Shown here: positions 13,157 to 39,463 of the stretch, in pieces
Position numbering within the stretch: position 1 is the stretch's first letter
Layout: the number at the start of each line of letters is the position of its first letter
Virus record (IMG/VR): IMGVR_UViG_2875722834_000003
Location: 1 to 39,463 of that record
DNA: 39,463 bases
Reading direction: 5' to 3' (one strand)
From: a virus
Taxonomy: Duplodnaviria; Heunggongvirae; Uroviricota; Caudoviricetes
Made by a program: the position numbers and the translations under genes
Notes under the pieces: generated by a model
What the model was told of the DNA's origin: nothing
Databases searched by the model: none
Seen by the model: only the letters and a program-made list of their open reading frames with translations

Positions 13157-14025
13157 TAAATGTCGTTAGTTTCTCCGGTGGCAGGACGTCAGCATATTTG
13201 CTCTGGCTAATGGAGCAAAAGCGACAGGCAGGTGAAGACGTGCATTACGTTTTCATGGATACAGGTTGTGAACACCCGATGACATATCGGTTTATCCGCG
13301 AAGTTGTGAAGTTCTGGGATATACCGCTCACTGTATTGCAGGTTGATATCAACCCAGAGCTTGGACAGTCAAATGGTTATACGGTATGGGAACCAAAGGA
13401 TATTCAGACGAAAATGCCTGTTCTGAAGCCATTTATCGATATGGTAAAGAAATATGGCACTCCATACGTCGGCGGCGCGTTCTGCACTGACAGATTAAAA
13501 CTCGTTCCCTTCACCAAATACTGTGATGACCATTTCGGGCGAGGGAATTACACCACGTGGATTGGCATCAGAGCTGATGAACCGAAGCGGCTAAAGCCAA
13601 AGCCTGGAATCAGATATCTTGCTGAACTGTCAGACTTTGAGAAGGAAGATATCCTCGCATGGTGGAAGCAACAACCATTCGATTTGCAAATACCGGAACA
13701 TCTCGGTAACTGCATATTCTGCATTAAAAAATCAACGCAAAAAATCGGACTTGCCTGCAAAGATGAGGAGGGATTGCAGCGTGTTTTTAATGAGGTCATC
13801 ACGGGATCGCATGTGCGTGACGGACATCGGGAAACACCAAAGGAGATTATGTACCGAGGAAGAATGTCGCTGGATGGTATCGCGAAAATGTATTCAGAAA
13901 ATGATTATCAAGCCCTGTATCAGGACATGGTACGAGCTAAAAGATTCGATACCGGCTCTTGTTCTGAGTCATGCGAAATATTTGGAGGGCAGCTTTATTT
14001 CGACTTCAGGAGGGAAGCTGCATGA
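13153..14025 (+). CDS. ninC: NinC (PAPS-reductase-like)
   Basis: ORF track 13093..14025; ATG 13153 gives [42 protein letters not shown]..., matching recalled lambda NinC. Confidence 0.85.
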
Positions 14026-14195
14026 TGCGATGTTATCGGTGCGGTGAATGCAAAGAAGATAACCGCTTCCGACCAAATCAACCTTACTGGAATCGATGGT
14101 GTCTCCGGCGTGAAAGAACACCAACAGGGGTGTTACCACTACCGCAGGAAAAGGAGGACGAGTGGCGAGACAGCGACGAAGTATCACCGACATAA
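14022..14195 (+). CDS. ninD: NinD
   Basis: ORF track 13971..14195; ATG 14022 overlaps the ninC stop (ATGA); [57 protein letters not shown]. Confidence 0.75.
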
Positions 14196-14338
14196 TCTGC
14201 GAAAACTGCAAATACCTTCCAACGAAACGCACCAGAAATAAACCCAAGCCAATCCCAAAAGAATCTGACGTAAAAACCTTCAATTACACAGCTCACCTGT
14301 GGGATATCCGGTGGCTAAGAGAACGTGCGAGGAAATGA
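14162..14338 (+). CDS. ninE: NinE
   Basis: Not in ORF track; GTG 14162 with AAGGAGG 5 nt upstream; (M)[57 protein letters not shown] resembles recalled lambda NinE. Confidence 0.6.
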
Positions 14339-15733: not shown

Positions 15734-15918
15734 ACGCCACAATTCAAACGATACCAGAGCTTCTTATCCAGACACGAGGCAATCAGACCGAAGTGGCGAG
15801 GATGCTTTCCTGCGCAAGAGGAACAGTGCTCAAGTACAACCGAGACAGCAAAGGTGAGCGTCACGTAATAGTTAACGGCGTCCTGATGGTCACGCCAGGC
15901 AAAAAGGGAAGACGATGA
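15730..15918 (+). CDS. ninH: NinH-like protein
   Basis: 62 aa MNATIQTIPELLIQTRGNQTEVARMLSCARGTVLKYNRDSKGERHVIVNGVLMV, similar to recalled lambda NinH. Confidence 0.7.
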   Translation: MNATIQTIPELLIQTRGNQTEVARMLSCARGTVLKYNRDSKGERHVIVNGVLMVTPGKKGRR

Positions 15919-16538
15919 GACTCGAAAGCGTAGCTAAATTTCATTCGCCAAAAAGCCCGATGATGAGCGACTCACCACGGGCCACGGCTTCTGACTCTCT
16001 TTCCGGTACTGATGTGATGGCTGCTATGGGGATGGCGCAATCACAAGCCGGATTCGGTATGGCTGCATTCTGCGGTAAGCACGAACTCAGCCAGAACGAC
16101 AAACAAAAGGCTATCAACTATCTGATGCAATTTGCACACAAGGTATCGGGGAAATACCGTGGTGTGGCAAAGCTCGAAGGAAATACTAAGGCAAAGGTAC
16201 TGCAAGTGCTCGCAACATTCGCTTATGCGGATTATTGCCGTAGTGCCGCGACGCCGGGGGCAAGATGCAGAGATTGCCACGGTACAGGCCGCGCGGTTGA
16301 TATAGCAAAAACAGAGCAGTGGGGGAGAGTTGTTGAGAAAGAGTGCGGAAGATGCAAAGGTGTCGGCTATTCAAGGATGCCAGCAAGCGCCGCATATCGC
16401 GCTGTAACGATGCTAATTCCAAACCTTACTCAACCCACCTGGTCACGCACTGTTAAGCCGCTGTATGACGCTCTGGTGGTGCAATGCCACAAAGAAGAGT
16501 CAATCGCAGACAACATTTTGAATGCGGTCACACGTTAG
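15915..16538 (+). CDS. Q: Late antiterminator Q (lambda type)
   Basis: 207 aa MRLESVAKFHSPKSPMMSDSPRATASDSLSGTDVMAAMGMAQSQAGFG..., matches recalled lambda Q; followed by a lambda-like pR'. Confidence 0.9.
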   Translation: MRLESVAKFHSPKSPMMSDSPRATASDSLSGTDVMAAMGMAQSQAGFGMAAFCGKHELSQNDKQKAINYLMQFAHKVSGKYRGVAKLEGNTKAKVLQVLATFAYADYCRSAATPGARCRDCHGTGRAVDIAKTEQWGRVVEKECGRCKGVGYSRMPASAAYRAVTMLIPNLTQPTWSRTVKPLYDALVVQCHKEESIADNILNAVTR

Positions 16539-16580: not shown

Positions 16581-16609
16581 TTGACTTTTTGAATAAAGTT
16601 GGGTAAATT
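16581..16609 (+). promoter_or_regulatory. Late promoter pR' (-35 TTGACT, 17-bp spacer, -10 TAAATT) with qut region
   Basis: TTGACT at 16581-16586 and TAAATT at 16604-16609, same hexamers and spacing as lambda pR'. Confidence 0.75.
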
Positions 16610-16646
16610 TGACATCAACGATGGATAAATGCACTCGTTAAATAAA

Positions 16647-16675
16647 GCCCTGAGTTAATATCTCGGGGCTTTTTG
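16647..16675 (+). terminator. tR'-like intrinsic terminator
   Basis: GCCCTGAG-ttaatat-CTCGGGGC (8-bp stem with one G-U pair) followed by TTTTT. Confidence 0.6.
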
Positions 16676-17756: not shown

Positions 17757-18190
17757 GCAGAGTAACCGCGATTATCTCTGCTCTGGTTATCTGCATCATC
17801 GTCTGCCTGTCATGGGCTGTTAATCATTACCGTGATAACGCAATCGCCTACAAAGAGCAGCGCGATAAGGCCACATCCACAATCGCTGACATGCAGAAGC
17901 GTCAACGTGATGTAGCAGAACTCGACGCCAGATACACAAAGGAGCTTGCTGATGCTAACGCGACTATCGAAAGTCTCCGTGCTGATGTTTCTGCTGGTCG
18001 TAAGCGCCTGCAAGTCTCCGCCACCTGTGCAAAGTCAACGACCGGAGCCGGCAGCATGGGCGATGGAGAAAGCCCAAGACTTACAGCAGATGCTGAACTC
18101 AATTATTACCGTCTCCGAAGTGGAATCGACAGGATAACCGCGCAGGTTAACTACCTGCAGGAGTACATCAGGACACAATGCCTTCGATGA
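17753..18190 (+). CDS. Rz: Rz i-spanin
   Basis: 145 aa with N-terminal TM segment; [31 protein letters not shown]... like lambda Rz; ATGA overlap with R. Confidence 0.85.
17952..18137 (+). CDS. Rz1: Rz1 o-spanin lipoprotein, embedded in Rz in the +1 frame
   Basis: ORF track 17946..18137 begins at TTG; ATG 17952 with AAGGAG upstream; lipobox LVVSAC then Pro-rich segment. Confidence 0.7.
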
Positions 18191-18363
18191 TAGCGATAAT
18201 TTTACTCATCATCCTTCACATCTGGCTCTGTAGACAGGGTGGTGATCACTTCTGGAGTGAATCCAGATTAAACATCTCATTGCTGATGCTTGATATTGAG
18301 CATCTGGCGCGCGGTAAGGGGCTGCGTTGAGATAAGAGCCAGTCATTACAAATACCAGGGTTT

Positions 18364-18390
18364 AGCCTCGCATTCGCGGGGCTTTTTTAT
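18364..18390 (+). terminator. Intrinsic terminator downstream of the lysis cassette
   Basis: GCCTCGC-attc-GCGGGGC (7-bp stem with one G-U pair) followed by TTTTTT. Confidence 0.55.
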
Positions 18391-18535
18391 ATCTGCAACA
18401 AACGCGCTTCACACGCGCGACTTCTGAACACAGAACCTTTCAGGATGACCCTTGAGGATGCCGGTTTGGTGATCGGTGCCTTTCTGTGGGCCGGAATCCT
18501 GTGTGACAAGGTTCATCACTAAAAGGTAATCACTG

Positions 18536-19066
18536 ATGAAGTACCCAACAGTTATTGTCAATGGTGTGTCCGTTCGTGTTGATGAGGATGGACGCTACAA
18601 CTTAAACGATCTCCATGCAGCAGCAGTTGCAAATGGAGAGGCTACAGAGCAACAGCGCCCAAGCCAGTTTTTGCGTAGCGCGCAGATAAAACGCTTCATA
18701 AAAGCACTGGAGGCCAAAGTGCAAAAAAGCACTTTGGAACAAATTCAACCACTTAAAATAATCAAAGGTGGTGCAGAACCAGGTGTGTGGGGTGTTGAAC
18801 TTCTGGCAATCAGATATGCAGCATGGATTAAGCCGGAATTTGAAATCGAAGTTTATGAAGTTTTCAAAACGGTTGTCCGTCTCGGCGTTGGCGCAATGTC
18901 CCGTCTGAATAGAATCGATCACATCATCAATACTGAAACCAAAGCGATAAGCCAGTGCGCAAGCCAAATGGCTAAGTGGGGCGTTGGTGGGCGAAAAAGA
19001 TTGCTTCATGTTGCACGCGAGAGAGCGGCAAATGAAGTGCAAATGTATTTGCCCGGGATGGTGTGA
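18536..19066 (+). CDS. KilA-N domain protein (putative)
   Basis: 176 aa; N-terminus ...VRVDEDGRYNLNDLHAAAVANGEATEQQRPSQFLRS... resembles recalled KilA-N consensus; AAAGG leader. Confidence 0.5.
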   Translation: MKYPTVIVNGVSVRVDEDGRYNLNDLHAAAVANGEATEQQRPSQFLRSAQIKRFIKALEAKVQKSTLEQIQPLKIIKGGAEPGVWGVELLAIRYAAWIKPEFEIEVYEVFKTVVRLGVGAMSRLNRIDHIINTETKAISQCASQMAKWGVGGRKRLLHVARERAANEVQMYLPGMV

Positions 19067-19322
19067 TTTCGCAGGTTAATCCAGTTTTTGCATTACGGCA
19101 GCACCGCGAAACAACCCAAGCCAGTAAGTGGGGAAATAACACTGGCAGCCACTGAAAGATGAACCTCCAGCCTTATGGCAAAAAAGATTCTTTGTGGTGG
19201 CGGACTGATGGAAAGACATCGGTTATTGCAGAGACCATTCAATGGGTGGTCTCGACAATGGCTTATACCCTACACGGGATAACTTAACTGATATCCCTTT
19301 TAACGGATAAACGGAGCCAACA

Positions 19323-19565
19323 ATGGCAGAGATTATTCCCATGACTGAAGAACAGAAATTCCAGTTAGAGATTTACAAACTGGTCATGAACCAGAACGCA
19401 GCCGCAGAAGAAGCATTTCAGTTCATTGGCACTGACGAGCTGAAGCTTGAGCTATTCAAAATTCACTTCCAGTCAGGTGGCGCTAATTCAGATATCACGA
19501 CCCGCACAATCGAAGCGGTACGTAAATCGAAGGAAGCGTTAGACCTGTTCACCGCTGGAGTGTGA
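19323..19565 (+). CDS. Hypothetical protein (80 aa)
   Basis: ORF track; ACGGAG leader; no motif recognised. Confidence 0.5.
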   Translation: MAEIIPMTEEQKFQLEIYKLVMNQNAAAEEAFQFIGTDELKLELFKIHFQSGGANSDITTRTIEAVRKSKEALDLFTAGV

Positions 19566-19566
19566 T

Positions 19567-19956
19567 ATGGCTAAGGCCAAATGGCACAAACTCCCGGCGT
19601 TCACCATTCCGCTGTTTCAAAGTGCACACGTCTACCTCGCAACAACCAGAGAACAGTTTCAGCACGCTGATAAATTCCTTGGCGGCAGCGGGGATGAGAA
19701 GCCATTCAATCTTGGGCTTGCAAGCAACTATGAAAACACTGATACGGGTGAGCGATGCTATCTGATTGGAGTATTCGATCAGCAGATCGCTACGCTCGTT
19801 CATGAGTGCGCCCACGTCTGCTTTTACGTTTGCTCTGATGTCGGCGTGACGACAAGGCCTGAAGATGCCAACGAGACGTACTGTTACATGCTGGACAGGA
19901 TGGTTAATCACTTCCTGCCATTCATTCAGGAGAAACAAGATGTATCACTGGAATAA
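19567..19956 (+). CDS. Hypothetical protein with HExxH motif (129 aa), possible zincin-like metallopeptidase
   Basis: ORF track; ATG 1 nt after the previous stop; HECAH motif in ...IATLVHECAHVCFYV... Confidence 0.5.
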   Translation: MAKAKWHKLPAFTIPLFQSAHVYLATTREQFQHADKFLGGSGDEKPFNLGLASNYENTDTGERCYLIGVFDQQIATLVHECAHVCFYVCSDVGVTTRPEDANETYCYMLDRMVNHFLPFIQEKQDVSLE

Positions 19957-20134
19957 TCAATCCCCTTATTGCCAATGCCAACGCTGCCCGTGCTGCGGGA
20001 AGATTGTTAACCAATTTACTGGCAACAATTTCTTCAAGACTGGTTATGGATATGGTGTTGCGGGTAGCGTTAATTGCTCTGGGGCTGCTGCTGAAACGAC
20101 ATCAAACACAGGCAAGCAGGAAGGAGCTAAGTAA
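19940..20134 (+). CDS. Hypothetical Cys-rich small protein (64 aa)
   Basis: ORF track 19865..20134; internal ATG 19940 has AGGAGA 6 nt upstream; MYHWNNQSPYCQCQRCPCCGKIV...; stop overlaps the ATG of a 29-aa ORF (20134..20223) that has AGGAAGGAG upstream. Confidence 0.4.
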   Translation: MYHWNNQSPYCQCQRCPCCGKIVNQFTGNNFFKTGYGYGVAGSVNCSGAAAETTSNTGKQEGAK

Positions 20135-20228
20135 TGGTAATCAAAGTTTGTTCATGCTCTCAGGGCTTCGACAACCCATCCAAATTCCGCGAAGAGTGGG
20201 ATAAGCAAACAGAAGGGAAATAATCAAT

Positions 20229-20654
20229 ATGGCGACTGAGAAAAAGAATGTCGGTCGCCCTTCGGATTACCTGCCGGAGGTGGCTGATGATATCTGTGCG
20301 CTGCTTGCCTCCGGGGAAAGTCTGGTTAAGGTTTGCAAGCGCCCCGGCATGCCAGCAAAGGCTACTGTATTTCGCTGGCTGTCAGAGCATGACGAATTTA
20401 GAGACAAGTACGCGAAGGCAACTGAGGCGCGAGCTGATTCTATTTTCGAAGAGATATTCGAAATTGCTGACACTGCGATTCCAGATGCTGCTGAGGTGGC
20501 AAAGGCAAGACTTCGCGTTGATACCCGCAAATGGGCGCTGGCCCGAATGAATCCCCGTAAGTATGGCGACAAGGTAACTAACGAGCTTGTCGGCAAAGAC
20601 GGCGGCGCAATCCAGATTGAAACATCACCGATGAGCACTCTATTCGGAAAATGA
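20229..20654 (+). CDS. Terminase small subunit (Sf6 gp1 type)
   Basis: 141 aa MATEKKNVGRPSDYLPEVADDICALLASGESLVKVCKRPGMPAKATVFRWL... resembles recalled Sf6 small terminase; directly precedes TerL. Confidence 0.8.
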   Translation: MATEKKNVGRPSDYLPEVADDICALLASGESLVKVCKRPGMPAKATVFRWLSEHDEFRDKYAKATEARADSIFEEIFEIADTAIPDAAEVAKARLRVDTRKWALARMNPRKYGDKVTNELVGKDGGAIQIETSPMSTLFGK

Positions 20655-33957: not shown

Positions 33958-34218
33958 TTAGTTGCTGTCTTTTTTATATAGCTCCTTTAGCGTGTCAAAG
34001 ACAATTTTCTTAACCATATCAGATTGTTGTTCTGCCATACGCTCTGCATCGTCAATGTAAACTGGTGCAGAGCTTTGTTTAGCCAATGATTCTTCAATCG
34101 CTGCAATTATCTCTGAGTTCAGCGACCTGTTATTCATCTTCGCGCGCTGTTTAATTTTCGCGTGGAGTTCATGCGGAAGTCTCAAGTGAAACTGCGCCTC
34201 GTCGTATTTGCTGTACAT
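33958..34218 (-). CDS. mnt: Mnt-like ribbon-helix-helix repressor
   Basis: ORF track 33958..34251; ATG 34216-34218 gives 86 aa MYSKYDEAQFHLRLPHELHAKIKQRAKMNNRSLNSEI...DDAERMAEQQSDMVKKIVFDTLKELYKK, aligning with recalled P22 Mnt (HFNFRMPMEV...NDAERLADEQSELVKKMVFDTLKDLYKK). Confidence 0.8.
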   Translation of the reverse strand: MYSKYDEAQFHLRLPHELHAKIKQRAKMNNRSLNSEIIAAIEESLAKQSSAPVYIDDAERMAEQQSDMVKKIVFDTLKELYKKDSN

Positions 34219-34291
34219 CCTTGATGCCTCACCAGTTGGGTGGAATGGCATCGTAACCTACTGGATAAATACTCAATAGTACCATTTCGGT

Positions 34292-34349: not shown

Positions 34350-34850
34350 TCACCTACTCAACAGATGGTCAGCAACCATGTTTGCTGCCTTATAAGCTAT
34401 AGCAGCTTCATCAATGGTGTTGAATCTCCCAAGGGTTATGTTTTTACCTGAGACATTTATCTGAGCTTGCCATTGATTTCTGGCTTGACAGAAAGTTACC
34501 CCCTTGATTCCAGCATTGCTATTTCGAGGTCCGACATTTAATGCATTTACGACTCTGCTGACATCCCTAAGGTTTGAGATTGCGTTATTTCTTCTGTTTC
34601 TATCAATGTGGTCAATCTCTTGTTTTGGCCATTCGCCATATACATACAGCCAGGCAAGTCTATGTGCAAAATATCTTACGCCATCAATATTAATTGCGTT
34701 ATATCCATAAGAAATTGTGCCAGCAACTTTCCCAACAGCACCTCTGGCGCTTAATTTCTTTTTCCAAGTGAAAATTCCTGTTTCTTTATTGTAATCGAGA
34801 ACCTCCATAAGGCGCTCCCGAGTTACTACCTCGTGACGTCTCTTACTCAT
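34350..34850 (-). CDS. HNH endonuclease with AP2-type DNA-binding domain (homing-endonuclease-like)
   Basis: ORF track 34350..34892 begins at TTG; ATG 34848-34850 with GGAG 7 nt upstream gives 166 aa; motifs [13 protein letters not shown]...[18 protein letters not shown] (HNH) and C-terminal [15 protein letters not shown]...[17 protein letters not shown] (AP2-like); about 37 % GC. Confidence 0.75.
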
Positions 34851-34872
34851 TATTTTCTCCGGAATGTTTATT

Positions 34873-37020
34873 ATGCCAGAACAATTATACAACGTTGTTG
34901 TTTCACAACCAAGTCAGTTATTTACTTTAGCTCGCTCGTTTAAAGCAAATGCCAATGGCAAAATTTATATCGGTAAAATTGACACTGACCCTGTAAATCC
35001 TGAAAACCAGATTCAGGTTTATGTGGAGAACGAAGACGGCTCTCACGTTCCTGTATCCCAGCCAATCATCATTAACGCCGCTGGTTATCCGGTATATAAC
35101 GGACAGATTGCCAAATTCGTTACCGTGCAAGGCCATTCTATGGCTGTTTATGATGCATATGGTGCTCAACAGTTCTATTTTCCTAATGTGCTTAAGTATG
35201 ACCCTGACCAGTTCAGGGCAATTATAGAGTCACCAGAAGGTGCTGGACACGTAGGATATCAGTATCGCAGGAATACAGGTGCGACCATGAGAATGGTAAG
35301 CGATGTGCTGGATGAGCGTGTCAGCCTTTGGGATTTTCACTGCGATTCATCAGGTAACGTAATTCAGCCCGGGCCAACTGTGGATAGTCGGCAGTACATT
35401 CAAAAGGCTATTGACGCGATATACGAAGCTGGCGGTGGAACACTAATTATCCCAACGGGAACATGGTATCTAAACTCGTATGGTGTTCCAGATAAAATTT
35501 CTAACTATGGTGGAGTAATCCACTGGCGCTCTCGTGTCAATATTCACTTTGAAGCCGGTTCTACGCTAAAGCTGACAAACTACTTCAATGAACGCGGCTA
35601 TTGCGTTATCTGTGGTTTTGACGGTAATGACCCCGCAACGTCTGGCGATTTGCGCGATGCAATGATTACGGGTAATGGAACCATTCACTGCGGGGACAAT
35701 ATACAGGCGGTGGGAGGCTCGCTAGCATATGCGATAGGCACTGGGAGATCATACAACGTAAGCGTAAGGGATATACACATTACTGGTGGGGACCTGACTT
35801 GGGCCGTGACACTTGGATGGAATGGTTATGGCAATAATACTGTTGTAGATGGGGTCACTGTTACTGAGGTTAAGAAGACTGAGGTTGCCCGTAACGTTGA
35901 CCAGTCCCTCTTCTATGTGGGGTGTCAGTTCTCTGGTATACAGAACTGCTATATGAAACCTTCTGAATCAGGGTTGGCCGCAAAAATATCAGCAGCAGTG
36001 GAACTTCACCAGTCTGGCACTTTTTGCCTGAACAACCAGATGTATGGATTCATGCGTGGTGTTTATGTTGTTTTGCACGGACGTGAAACGGCAGGCAGCG
36101 GTCTATTCATGAACAATATTCGTGTATCTGGTAACACTGCGTACATTAATGGTCAGTTTGTGACTGTAGGTGCGGATAGTATAGATTTTGATACTCATGT
36201 TTCTGATGTAATTATATCCGATAACATTTGTACCATTATGAACCCTGTAGACTCTGCTCCATTGGTTAGATGCTTTATATCATCTGACTTGTTTGTAGAG
36301 GCCCCGCCGGATAATGAAACTGCGCGCGTACTGGTTGATGGGAATATCTTCTTAGCGCCAACAACTACCCCAGACAGTTTATTTTTCTTTTACAGAGTAA
36401 GCAGCCGTGGGTTTTACTTTAGCAACAACATGTGTGATTGCCGTCGTATAATTTCTGGGGATGGGGCCGGCACTGGTATTGTAGAACTACGCGATATAAT
36501 CTGGGACGCATCCAATAAGATTGGGCCTACTTGGATAGGTCAACGTGGCGGTAATGCGAACATGTTTGAGTTTTACGTCGCCAATATTTTACGCTGTAAA
36601 TTTGAAATATCTATGCCATATGTGGACACTAGCATGGCTAGTATTTTCTACGCGCCAGATACGGCCAATATAACGTTTACAGTAGTCAAAGTTGATCCAG
36701 AAAATATACCATCTTCTGTAACTGCAGTTAGCATCTCAGAGGCTAACAAAAACCGGGGAACAAATTACTTTGAGTTCCCGGAAACTATATCCTTCTCATC
36801 TTTCAACACCGCGGGAGCAGTATTTTGCTACAGCACATCAACTAACTATGCCTGGTGTGGAAGTGCAACGGCATTGTCAAAGTCAGGAGTTTCTGGGCTG
36901 GTAACTCCTGGTGAATATGGTGTCAAAGATAACGGTCAGCTTGGTGGGGTAGGATATAATGATACAGGCGCAGCCAGGAACTGGAGCCAGCGTGTTTTAT
37001 TAAAAAGCGCAATAGAATAA
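34873..37020 (+). CDS. Tailspike protein (P22-type head-binding domain plus beta-helix receptor-binding/depolymerase domain)
   Basis: ORF track 34864..37020; ATG 34873 chosen by alignment to the P22 tailspike N-terminus (NVVVS..., [33 protein letters not shown]); the remaining about 600 aa differ from P22. Confidence 0.85.
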
Positions 37021-37055: not shown

Positions 37056-38543
37056 TTATTTTTTGTATACCAGTATTGTCATATCTCCCTTATTTAAAAC
37101 TTTTTCAGGCTTCCCATTTTTAGATGAAATGGCGTTGATACACGACTGTATGTCTCCGCACTTTTCATGCCCATCAATAGCGATAAAGTATTTTCCATTT
37201 GATGGCATTGCTTCTTTACTGTACCAACTTCTCATGGTTTGATATCGAGGTGAGTTAAAATCAATAGACCCATTTTCAGAAATATCTACAGGTGCGATAA
37301 CTACCTCCCCATTGGAAGCCCAGAATGTAGTTAGGCTTTTATTCCAGTAGTCACCATAACCATAACTCAAATTATTATCTAGTAAAAACGCAGAATAATC
37401 CTTTATCTCCCGTTCAGAATCTTCGTAAGTTTTATTTCCAAAGTTAAAGGTTATAGCGCTCGACAGTACAAATAAAATGCAAATGGCATATGCTAGCCAT
37501 TTTGTCATTCTGCTATGAGCAACTGAATATACTATGAACACAAAAGGTGCAATATTCACAAAAAAGCGAGGTATAGGCTGGCTTGGGTCTGGATTGCTTA
37601 CTGTATAAGCTGAGATAATTCCAGCGGCGGAAAGTAGGGATAGCATAAAAAAATAACTAGAACTATCTTTCCTCAGAATCCCTGTTATGCATACATAACA
37701 AAATAACCCCCCCACAAGAATAAATGAGGCTATATATAGGGAGTGCTGCCTGAGGAAGAAAATGTTAAACATTTCACCAACCGTGAGAATCAGTTGATGT
37801 GCGTTCCCCTGCATTGTAACAAAATCAACAATATTAAAAGGTTGAGAGTCGATTCCCATTAATTTTGGTATTGTATGATTCAGAGCAATACCATAAAAAA
37901 TAGCAAGGAGAATGAAATTTACTAATTTTGTTTCTTTTCTGATGACAAAAATGAGTTCAGTAATCAGAATTGGAAGGAGATAAGTAGGCGCAGCCCACAT
38001 ATCTGAGGAACAAACTAATAACCCAAAAATGCCAACTATGGCATATGATAAAAGCCCTTGATCTCTATGTGCTTTCATTGCCATAAGGCATGTTAGCATT
38101 CCAAAAGCAACAGTAGAGTAGTGAGCAAATGGATGCTGAACAAATCCATCTGTCCAATATATGTGCGGCAAAGCAGCAAGAGGCACTGCGCAAACTAGTA
38201 ATGAACTTCGCTTGTTTAATTTCTTTGATATTGTAGATGCGATAATTATGACGCTGAATGCAAAAAAAGCAGATCCAAATATCAGCATTGGAGCGCCATA
38301 ACTTCCTAATATCAAATAAAACAGAAAGTATACAGGGTACAATGTAAAGTACCAGTTATCCGGTGTCGGGTTCCAATCAGTAAGAGACTTGAAACCGTGT
38401 TCCTTAAACTCAAGCCATACAACAGGACCATTTACTCCATCAGCATCTATTCTGAAGTATATATAAGAAAGATAAGAGATAGATATTGCGCATAAGAGCA
38501 ATATTACAATCTCTATTGATTTTTTATTTATTAGGTGTTTCAT
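37056..38543 (-). CDS. gtrC: GtrC-like serotype-specific O-antigen glucosyltransferase (polytopic membrane protein)
   Basis: 495 aa, multiple hydrophobic segments plus a C-terminal soluble domain; directly downstream of gtrB with ATGA overlap; about 27-33 % GC in sampled lines. Confidence 0.6.
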
Positions 38544-39463
38544 TTTTTATCCTTGTTACTTAAAATATATCTAGGCCTGTTCTTGGATTCGGTGTAAATC
38601 CTCCCGATGTACTCACCAAGCACCCCAATGCCAATAAGTTGTACGCCACCAAGAAACAGAATAGAAACCAGCAATGAGGGGTAGCCTCGCACCGGATTGC
38701 CAAAGGCGATAGTGTCTATAATCATCCATGCACCATAAATGAACGACAGGCCTGCTACCAACAATCCAATATAAGTCCACATGCGCAGAGGGAAGGTAGA
38801 GAAACTGGTTATCCCCTCAAGGGCAAGGTTCCATAACTTCCAGCCATTGAATTTTGAATCACCGGCAATCCTTTCAGCCCTGGTGTATTCAACGATATCA
38901 GTGTTCCCGCCAACCCAGCTAAGAATGCCTTTCATAAAGAGGTTGCGCTCAGGAAGAAGCTTGATGTTTTCCACCACCGCTCGGGACATCAGGCGGAAAT
39001 CACCTACATTCTCCTCAATTTTAGGGTTGCTGATTTTGTTGTGCAGCTTGTAGAACCACTCAGCGGTCTTCCGCTTAAGTCTTCCATCAGTTGATCTGTC
39101 TGTTCGTTTCGCCAGTACCATTTCAGCGCCAGCCTGCCACTTATCGATCAGATGAGGAATGACGTTAATAGGATCCTGCAGGTCTACATCGATAGGGATT
39201 ACGGCTTCGCCTGTCGCATGGTCTAGCCCTGCAAATAAAGCAGGCTCCTTGCCGAAGTTGCGGGTGAATGACAACGCAACAACTAGAGGGTCTGCAATTG
39301 CCAGAGATCTGATTATTGACTCTGTAGCATCCTTGCTGCCGTCGTTGATGAAGACTATTTCAACCTCATATTGCTGAAGATCTTCAAACTCGCGCACTGT
39401 TTTATAGAAAATTGGAATCGCGTCTTCTTCATTGAAGACAGGAACGACCAGAGATATCTTCAT
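38540..39463 (-). CDS. gtrB: GtrB bactoprenol glucosyltransferase (GT2 family)
   Basis: 307 aa [26 protein letters not shown]...; GT2 motifs (INDGSKD, DVDLQDP) and two C-terminal TM helices; start codon is the last three bases of the window. Confidence 0.85.

Follow-up and report, generated by a model that had tools for sequence, protein, structure and literature searches.

The part of P22-like phage genomes that lies between the lysis genes and the small terminase gene has been mapped for two decades. This paper concerns one such block, positions 18536-20223 of the virus record IMGVR_UViG_2875722834_000003, whose 39,463 nucleotides were analysed as a whole and are called the window below. 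The equivalent segments that have been described are those of epsilon34 (genes 67-71), ST64T (orf-118, orf-129 and orf-134) and L (Orf129 and dec). Epsilon34 and ST64T follow the same plan as the window: Rz/Rz1, an open reading frame (ORF) of 50 codons, a terminator, a variable DNA-binding or nuclease gene, a DUF2560 gene, a homologue of Orf-129, a variable slot and the small terminase gene. They also have in common with it a junction at which a Shine-Dalgarno site, a stop codon and a start codon run together. The 129-residue protein of the window is 59-61% identical to Orf129 of L, ST64T and epsilon34 (61% for ST64T and L). The differences lie in which genes are present. Epsilon34 has a GIY-YIG gene where the window has KilA-N, both epsilon34 and ST64T have a 134-residue Dec-like gene in the slot where the window has ORFs of 64 and 29 residues, and their terminase is of the P22 gp3 type whereas that of the window is of the Sf6 type. 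The block is a new combination inside a well-known type of region, and as a whole it is ordinary. It adds one more set of interchangeable cassettes.

Gene content and domain matches identify the window as a complete Escherichia coli prophage of the P22-like kind. A host pectinesterase-like gene is followed by a lambda-type integrase, a cI-type repressor and a Q antiterminator (15915-16538); 3' of Q come a holin, a lysozyme, Rz with an embedded Rz1, the Sf6-type small terminase, the large terminase and the portal, with an HK620-type tailspike and a glycosyltransferase at the 3' end. An earlier sequence-only reading had placed five ORFs between the post-lysis terminator and the small terminase, and all five are there on the plus strand: a KilA-N protein of 176 residues (18536-19066) and proteins of 80 (19323-19565), 129 (19567-19956), 64 (19940-20134) and 29 residues (20134-20223). 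The HECAH and CQCQRCPCC motifs, the TAATG overlap and the Shine-Dalgarno site that it named are also present where it put them. We believe the block is a mosaic accessory segment of the late operon, set between the lysis cassette and the small terminase, with five genuine genes and no dedicated system. This account, with its zincin prediction, late expression and coupling, is in our judgment likely to be right as a whole. The earlier interpretation is partly supported by it and needs correcting on three points: the nature of the 29-residue ORF, the place of the block in the operon, and the metal site of the 64-residue protein, which is putative and plausible from its CxCxxCxCC spacing.

A predicted minimal zincin

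The 129-residue protein (19567-19956) belongs to the Orf-129/HkcC family. It matches phrog_1365 with an E-value of 2e-37, residues 1-125 aligning to profile positions 3-121 of 127, and that family is listed as "unknown function". It is 35% identical over 113 residues to the hkcC product of HK620 and to a 125-residue ORF of P22. The hkcC genes of P22 and HK620 are paralogues of the gene discussed here in which HECAH and NETYCY are conserved, but they lie between sieA and mnt and not upstream of the terminase. Both paralogues are present in some phages. An exhaustive profile search puts the family at 862 cluster representatives at E <= 0.001, nearly all of them 110-140 residues long. The epsilon34 genome paper counts hkcC among the genes of unknown function (PMC2629481), and the literature on 'hkcC' mentions it only in that way. 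In the P22 genome (NC_002371.2) the 125-residue HExxH paralogue is intact, at about 13849-14226 on the plus strand (2350-2727 of our locus L056), and is unannotated in the RefSeq record, where only the sieA promoter is marked.

Conservation picks out very few residues. In an alignment of 83 diverse members at 24-49% identity the only invariant positions are G50, H79, E80, H83 and E103, and H79, E80 and H83 do not vary among 32 close relatives either. HECAH is encoded at 19801-19815 and Glu103 at 19873-19875. Glu103 comes 20 residues after His83, and HExxH with a downstream Glu is the signature of zincin metallopeptidases. The AlphaFold2 (AF2) model has a mean predicted local distance difference test score (pLDDT) of 84 and a predicted TM-score (pTM) of 0.79. 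Its elements come in the order strand, strand, helix, strand, strand, followed by a helix of residues 74-91 that holds HExxH at a pLDDT of about 90 and by a helix of residues 103-128 that opens with Glu103. Iyer et al. describe the core of the zincin-like metallopeptidases as a sheet, an N-terminal helix, the HExxH helix and a second helix that gives the Glu ligand (PMC5512222). We match the protein to this core because the order of elements in the model is the order of the core. Glu103 is the candidate third metal ligand, on the helix that follows the motif, as judged from the sequence and the predicted secondary structure.

We compared the protein with the metallopeptidase domains of phage and plasmid polyvalent proteins and ArdC, with the minigluzincins, SprT and Wss1, and with the astacin-like myroilysin. 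The predicted likeness consists of HExxH on one helix, a conserved Glu on the next, and a core with a sheet and an N-terminal helix. The difference is that this family is free-standing at about 120-130 residues, without a partner domain. It also differs from the metzincins, since it has neither a third His nor a Met-turn and has Glu at +20 instead.

Profile comparisons lean towards the zincins. When the Protein Data Bank (PDB) was searched by hmmsearch with a broad profile of the family, nine of the ten best sequences were zincins, with myroilysin at E 0.024 and BMP1, tolloid-like 1 and peptidyl-Lys metalloendopeptidase at E 0.5-1. The alignment to myroilysin takes in both the motif and the N-terminal strands (the 'KWP...PLY.G' region). 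Against this myroilysin segment, which was picked after the fact as the best match, hhalign reports a probability of 90% across 104 columns. A Foldseek search of predicted viral structures (BFVD) yields 27 phage proteins at E <= 0.001, the highest TM-score being 0.88. These proteins belong to phages of Pseudomonas, Ralstonia, Achromobacter, Erwinia, Acinetobacter, Serratia and Eggerthella and to crAss-like and jumbo phages; nearly all are uncharacterised, and a few are named SprT-like or metalloprotease.

Several results weigh against the zincin assignment. The E-values of the PDB profile matches are marginal (0.02-1), a profile of the close family finds no match among PDB sequences, and searches of PDB folds with the model give no significant structural neighbour. 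The Pfam SprT-like family (PF10263) scores 12.7 bits (E 0.12), below its threshold of 25.6, and SprT-like matches occur in only 3 of the 83 relatives, the best at E 1e-4. NCBIfam TIGR04267, the aKG-HExxH peptide beta-hydroxylase family, reaches 18 bits (E 0.002) against a cut-off of 40, in a match that spans just 30 residues around HExxH. The sequence-only reading had proposed that the protein could be a small zincin-like peptidase. That proposal gains an invariant HExxH and Glu, their predicted placement on helices and the profile similarity, though no solved structure matches significantly at fold level. We believe, with moderate confidence, that the sequence and the model describe a free-standing minimal zincin. 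His79, His83 and Glu103 would bind zinc, Glu80 would serve as the catalytic base, and the protein would cleave some host or phage protein.

The prediction matters because it offers a concrete biochemical proposal, a minimal zinc peptidase that would use His79, His83 and Glu103, for a gene that is listed as "unknown function" in P22, HK620, L, ST64T and epsilon34. The family has structural relatives in many unrelated phages and is without a solved structure. It is tempting to go further. Orf-129/HkcC might be an unrecognised family of free-standing mini-zincin proteases in many phage groups, crAss-like, jumbo and temperate phages among them, made late to cleave a specific host or rival-phage protein, for instance in counter-defence or host conditioning, with the 23-29-residue micro-protein tuning the start of packaging and the Cys-cluster protein acting as a thiol 'switch' partner of the protease. 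We regard this joint picture as a speculation that is probably wrong in its full form.

Two mini-genes ahead of the small terminase

The 64-residue protein (19940-20134) carries a cluster of five cysteines, YCQCQRCPCCGK, of which the CQCQRCPCC part is encoded at 19970-19996. Its gene overlaps the 129-residue gene by 17 nucleotides (nt) and has AGGAG at 19928-19932, 7 nt ahead of the start codon. The protein is rare. It forms six clusters among 5.8 billion proteins and occurs in 14 IMG/VR contigs, and one of 185,579 species genomes, that of Atlantibacter subterraneus, has the gene in the same arrangement. In a homologue of 64% identity (P0125) the N-terminal half including YCQCQRCPCCGK is conserved and the Gly/Ser/Thr-rich tail has diverged. 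The spacing of the cysteines suggests that the cluster probably binds metal.

The same cluster turns up in an unrelated setting. A 74-residue protein with ten cysteines (L054, positions 1835-2059, from IMGVR_UViG_3300047552_000377) has the exact 12-residue YCQCQRCPCCGK motif, and its DNA is 92% identical to that of the window over 37 nt. Its gene lies among small early-region-like genes and not near a terminase. The common motif may point to a very small, mobile Cys-cluster module. A single E. coli genome has the 64- and 29-residue ORFs fused in frame into a protein of 89 residues (P0123), a short deletion having removed the QEGAK-stop junction. As a query this fusion added just one DUF2560 fusion.

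The 29-residue ORF (20134-20223) belongs to a widespread family with the core QGFDNPSKFR[DE]EWDKQ. Its start overlaps the stop of the 64-residue ORF in TAATG (20132-20136), a Shine-Dalgarno site, AGGAAGGAG, lies at 20118-20126, 7 nt ahead of its ATG, and it ends 5 nt before the start codon of the small terminase. We scanned IMG/VR contigs for this family with a back-translated degenerate DNA pattern of the core, and used tblastn besides. The core motif is present in at least 120 contigs. Among the matches listed, 116 of 120 copies lie in an ORF of 23-29 residues (the other four open further upstream, at 42-58 residues), and the commonest form is MATQGFDNPSKFRDEWDKQAEGK, found in 67 contigs. 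About 110 of these copies could be scored, having downstream sequence, and 72 of them have a small terminase start within 20 nt, 45 of the Sf6 type and 27 of the P22 gp3 type. In the commonest sequence versions the junction of mini-ORF and terminase is identical, GGGAAATAATCAATATG, for both terminase types. The sequence-only reading had called both mini-ORFs Cys-rich. This holds for the 64-residue ORF, whose cluster is conserved; the 29-residue ORF is Cys-rich in this copy only, both of its cysteines being Gly in close relatives and deleted in the locus L013.

By the patterns of substitution both mini-ORFs evolve like coding sequence. Their frames are open in copies at 85-92% nucleotide identity and in the 64%-identical protein homologue. 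The ratio of nonsynonymous to synonymous polymorphism (pN/pS) is 0.18-0.56 for the 64-residue ORF and 0.22-0.44 for the 29-residue ORF, and the indels seen in the 29-residue ORF, of 18 bp and 3 bp, are in frame. Homologues of this ORF in Cronobacter phage ES2 and Salmonella phage Emek add independent support. The 38-nt core occurs in 21 nucleotide versions that keep the peptide and differ at up to 11 positions; we count this as no more than supporting, because the scan pattern itself selects that peptide. Five peptides of the 29-residue family score 12.6-15.3 bits against Pfam DUF2740 (PF10872), below its threshold of 27, and these matches always fall at profile positions 19-32 of 43. We found no papers on DUF2740.

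Two other frames were considered and dropped. A hydrophobic alternative-frame ORF at 20004-20204 was rejected because stops break it in L055, the most diverged copy. A +1 frameshift fusion of the 129- and 64-residue frames has as its sole hint that the 64-residue frame is open upstream, back to an ATG at 19865, and the relatives have no conserved slippery context.

The stop codon 5 nt before the terminase ATG suggests translational coupling. The terminase's own AAGGG is 11 nt from its start, which is a weak spacing, and ribosomes finishing the mini-ORF would probably also feed small-terminase translation. More generally the five genes of the block are tightly packed and probably translationally coupled. 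The strong Shine-Dalgarno site and the stop just before the terminase ATG resemble the coupling short upstream ORFs of phage late operons; the difference is that here the peptide itself is conserved and is also found away from the terminase. About one third of the copies among the matches listed are so placed, after Rz1 or elsewhere in the late operon, which counts against a simple coupling device. Cronobacter phage ES2 has the mini-ORF between Q and the lysis genes, and Salmonella phage Emek has it between KilA-N and DUF2560, in a frame different from that of the annotated orf53. Coupling to the small terminase cannot then be the mini-ORF's sole role, and conservation of the peptide across synonymous change and away from the terminase suggests that the peptide matters too. 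Pipelines systematically miss this conserved gene of 23-29 residues before the small terminase in many enterobacterial prophages. The gap bears on work on terminase expression and on catalogues of micro-proteins.

The annotation of Emek itself deserves a remark. For part of its length the annotated frame of orf53 (JQ806763; 1706-1867 of our locus L058) appears to be wrong, and the region holds a 23-residue ORF, MSAEGFNNPSKFRDEWDSSVKSK, that has its own GAAGGAG ribosome-binding site and is a member of the mini-ORF family.

A mosaic slot with conserved junctions

The sequence-only reading took the block for accessory cargo in a known variable slot, and comparison with other P22-like phages bears this out at two positions. 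Where the window has KilA-N, others have Rha, GIY-YIG or a different DNA-binding protein. In the slot that separates the Orf-129 homologue from the terminase, relatives have the 134-residue Dec-like gene (orf-134 in ST64T and gene 71 in epsilon34, with dec of phage L in the same region), a 45-residue basic protein, proteins of 110, 168-172 or 212 residues, or nothing.

The edges of these cassettes recur. The junction of the window, AGGAAGGAGCTAAGTAATG at 20118-20136 on the plus strand, consists of a Shine-Dalgarno site, a stop codon and a start codon. The element AAGGAGCYAAGTAATGG ends three unrelated genes, each of which precedes a different gene: the 64-residue ORF of the window, orf-129 of ST64T and epsilon34 and the gene for the 45-residue basic protein. 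Copies lie at 20118-20136 of the window, at about 2680-2700 of the locus L002 and at about 3500-3516 of L020 and L036. These three proteins all end in ...GAK because the junction is common to them. The junction has the look of a linker at which late-operon cassettes recombine. A second junction, TTCAGGAGMAACAAGATG, links the Orf-129 homologue to either the 64-residue ORF or the 45-residue protein, and the mosaic breakpoint between Sf6-type and P22 gp3-type terminases is exactly the terminase ATG. On these alignments, cassette exchange occurs at short conserved junctions. One locus, L039, shows that neighbouring cassettes have separate histories, since its Orf-129 homologue is 63% identical in protein to that of the window while the mini-ORF beside it is 92% identical in DNA. 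In E. coli the segment 19560-20235 is found as prophage DNA of 98-100% identity in 16 complete genomes, and it is partly present in 37 of 5426.

Some occupants of the slot in relatives may be noted for themselves. Uncharacterised genes stand just ahead of the small terminase in L013 (3642-4160), L020 (3514-4020), L039 (3660-3992) and L055 (1671-2003). One product is a protein of 168-172 residues, MINQQWP.../MANPNFTPSWPLYKD..., whose start resembles those of phage L Dec and ST64T Orf-134, and another is a 110-residue protein, MAITAIQTATAGS.... A tblastn search of Orf-134 against the window gave nothing at E <= 1.

Expression and alternative explanations

The sequence-only reading placed the block at the start of the late operon. 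It lies in the middle of that operon, after the lysis cassette, and the sites that resemble PR' and tR' are beside Q at about 16581-16672: a promoter-like site at 16581-16609 and a terminator-like site at 16644-16672, just downstream of the gene. In lambdoid phages PR' and tR' are located just 3' of Q, and Q-modified RNA polymerase reads through such terminators. Late lytic expression is the default expectation because Q-modified polymerase passes terminators of the post-lysis type. All five genes would be transcribed from the Q-dependent late promoter, past the post-lysis terminator, late in the lytic cycle. We have considered whether the block could instead be a 'moron' for lysogenic conversion or anti-phage defence under its own promoter, as a terminator precedes it, its slot is hypervariable and a KilA-N domain occurs in the prophage defence protein BstA. 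A consensus scan, which is a weak test, finds no sigma-70-like site on the plus strand between the terminator and KilA-N (18391-18535), and promoter-like sites in the region are as many as chance predicts (5 found, 5.0 expected from shuffled sequence). None of the six proteins searched matches a PADLOC defence model at E <= 0.1, and all the genes share the orientation of the late operon and are closely packed with it. We think a moron is quite unlikely.

The other alternatives concern the 129-residue protein and the mini-ORFs. A case can be made that the HExxH protein serves packaging as an accessory factor functionally tied to the terminase, perhaps together with the mini-ORF, by analogy with the HNH endonucleases encoded beside the terminases of HK97-like phages. 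In some 30 loci that we examined, the family gene has a small-terminase gene 0-1.2 kb downstream of it, and these terminases are of five types or more (a 180-residue variant has the lysis genes on one side and an Sf6-type terminase on the other); also, the mini-ORF abuts two terminase types through an identical junction. Position at the edge of a recombination-prone slot explains both facts equally well. The HExxH gene is missing from many P22-like phages whose terminases are the same; in E212, DUF2560 and a mini-ORF run straight into the small terminase. The copies of P22 and HK620 are in the immI region, far from the terminase, and some phages carry both copies. The gene is not an obligatory packaging factor given its absence beside the same terminases and the immI location of those copies, and it is dispensable for virion assembly because so many relatives do without it. 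The protein has no HNH or nuclease signature, and its invariant residues are those of a peptidase. The sequence-only reading assigned none of the five proteins a role in packaging or lysis, and we too found no homology to proteins of either kind. A packaging role seems to us improbable, though it is the alternative we rate highest. It is slightly less probable that the 64- and 29-residue ORFs are not genes at all, the 290 bp between the 129-residue gene and the terminase being a non-coding spacer or regulatory leader that is open by chance. PGAP calls neither ORF in the 100%-identical prophage of E. coli N9, neither has a Pfam, PHROG or NCBIfam family above threshold, and the AF2 model of the 64-residue protein is disordered (pLDDT 40) and uninformative; these facts do weigh against our account. 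The open frames in diverged copies, the in-frame indels and the low pN/pS argue for genes, as do two strong, well-spaced Shine-Dalgarno sites with overlapping stop and start codons. In L055 stops interrupt the alternative frame, an Rfam search of the whole window gives no RNA family, and the mini-ORF peptide survives as many as 11 changes in 38 nucleotides and occurs at other genome positions. Least probable of all, and by our estimate very improbable, is a cassette for peptide modification or maturation, in which the HExxH protein would act on the downstream Cys-rich peptide or peptides in the manner of a ribosomally synthesized and post-translationally modified peptide (RiPP) system or of a protease with its substrate or inhibitor. 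The weak match to TIGR04267 would fit, as would the overlap of the enzyme gene with a Cys-rich ORF that has a low-complexity tail. That match is, however, far below its cut-off and limited to the motif, and the HExxH family has 862 representative clusters where the 64-residue gene has 14 viral contigs and one species genome. Unrelated genes follow most members of the family, the 129-residue and mini-ORF cassettes have different histories in L039, and there is no transporter, leader motif or immunity gene present.

Upstream elements and other parts of the window

The conserved post-lysis segment begins just outside the block with a 50-residue ORF (18178-18330, plus strand) that has a hydrophobic N-terminus and overlaps the end of Rz. 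It matches phrog_11822 (E 4e-38), bears the label hypothetical in the identical prophage of E. coli N9, and is the positional equivalent of epsilon34 gene 67 and Sf6 gene 65. The post-lysis terminator of the sequence-only reading is borne out: at 18364-18390 on the plus strand there is a hairpin with an 8-bp stem of six GC pairs followed by TTTTTT, and its equivalents in epsilon34 and Emek are annotated as rho-independent terminators. The putative KilA-N domain has become a secure one. Pfam KilA-N (PF04383) matches residues 9-113 at 7e-18, with 64.8 bits against a gathering threshold of 23.8, and phrog_129 matches at 1.6e-60. In nucleotides the gene is 94% identical to its KilA-N counterparts in the Salmonella phages SE1, ST104 and MG40.

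The 256-bp gap between KilA-N and DUF2560 holds a 35-residue ORF, MAKKILCGGGLMERH... (19175-19282, plus strand). In ST64T Orf-118 this is an N-terminal extension joined in frame to DUF2560, and here a stop codon separates the two. Residues 1-35 of Orf-118 are 89% identical to it by tblastn, and the epsilon34 annotation describes the stretch as 'similar to N-terminus of ST64T orf118'. Inspection of the sequence upstream of this ORF finds no Shine-Dalgarno site. The ORF may be a remnant, or else a mini-gene in its own right. The DUF2560 protein of 80 residues (19323-19565) matches Pfam DUF2560 (PF10834) over the full profile at 1e-43, with 147.7 bits against a gathering threshold of 25, and belongs to phrog_571. 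Its family is that of P22 Orf80, Sf6 gene 67 and HK620 hkbM, by the homologue names in the epsilon34 and Emek annotations, and the literature on DUF2560 holds incidental mentions only. The downstream boundary of the block is the Sf6-type small terminase subunit (20229-20654, plus strand; Pfam Sf6_terminase, 1.8e-44).

Two genes elsewhere in the window may be worth recording. On the minus strand at 34350-34892, between a Mnt-like repressor (33958-34251) and the tailspike gene, lies a gene for a protein with HNH_3 and AP2 domains. This position is the immI or 'ant moron' slot, where P22 holds hkcC, sieA and ant. A 495-residue ORF at 37056-38543, also on the minus strand, has no Pfam match at E <= 0.001 and adjoins a family-2 glycosyltransferase (38540-39463). 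This ORF may belong to a cassette for O-antigen modification at the end of the prophage.

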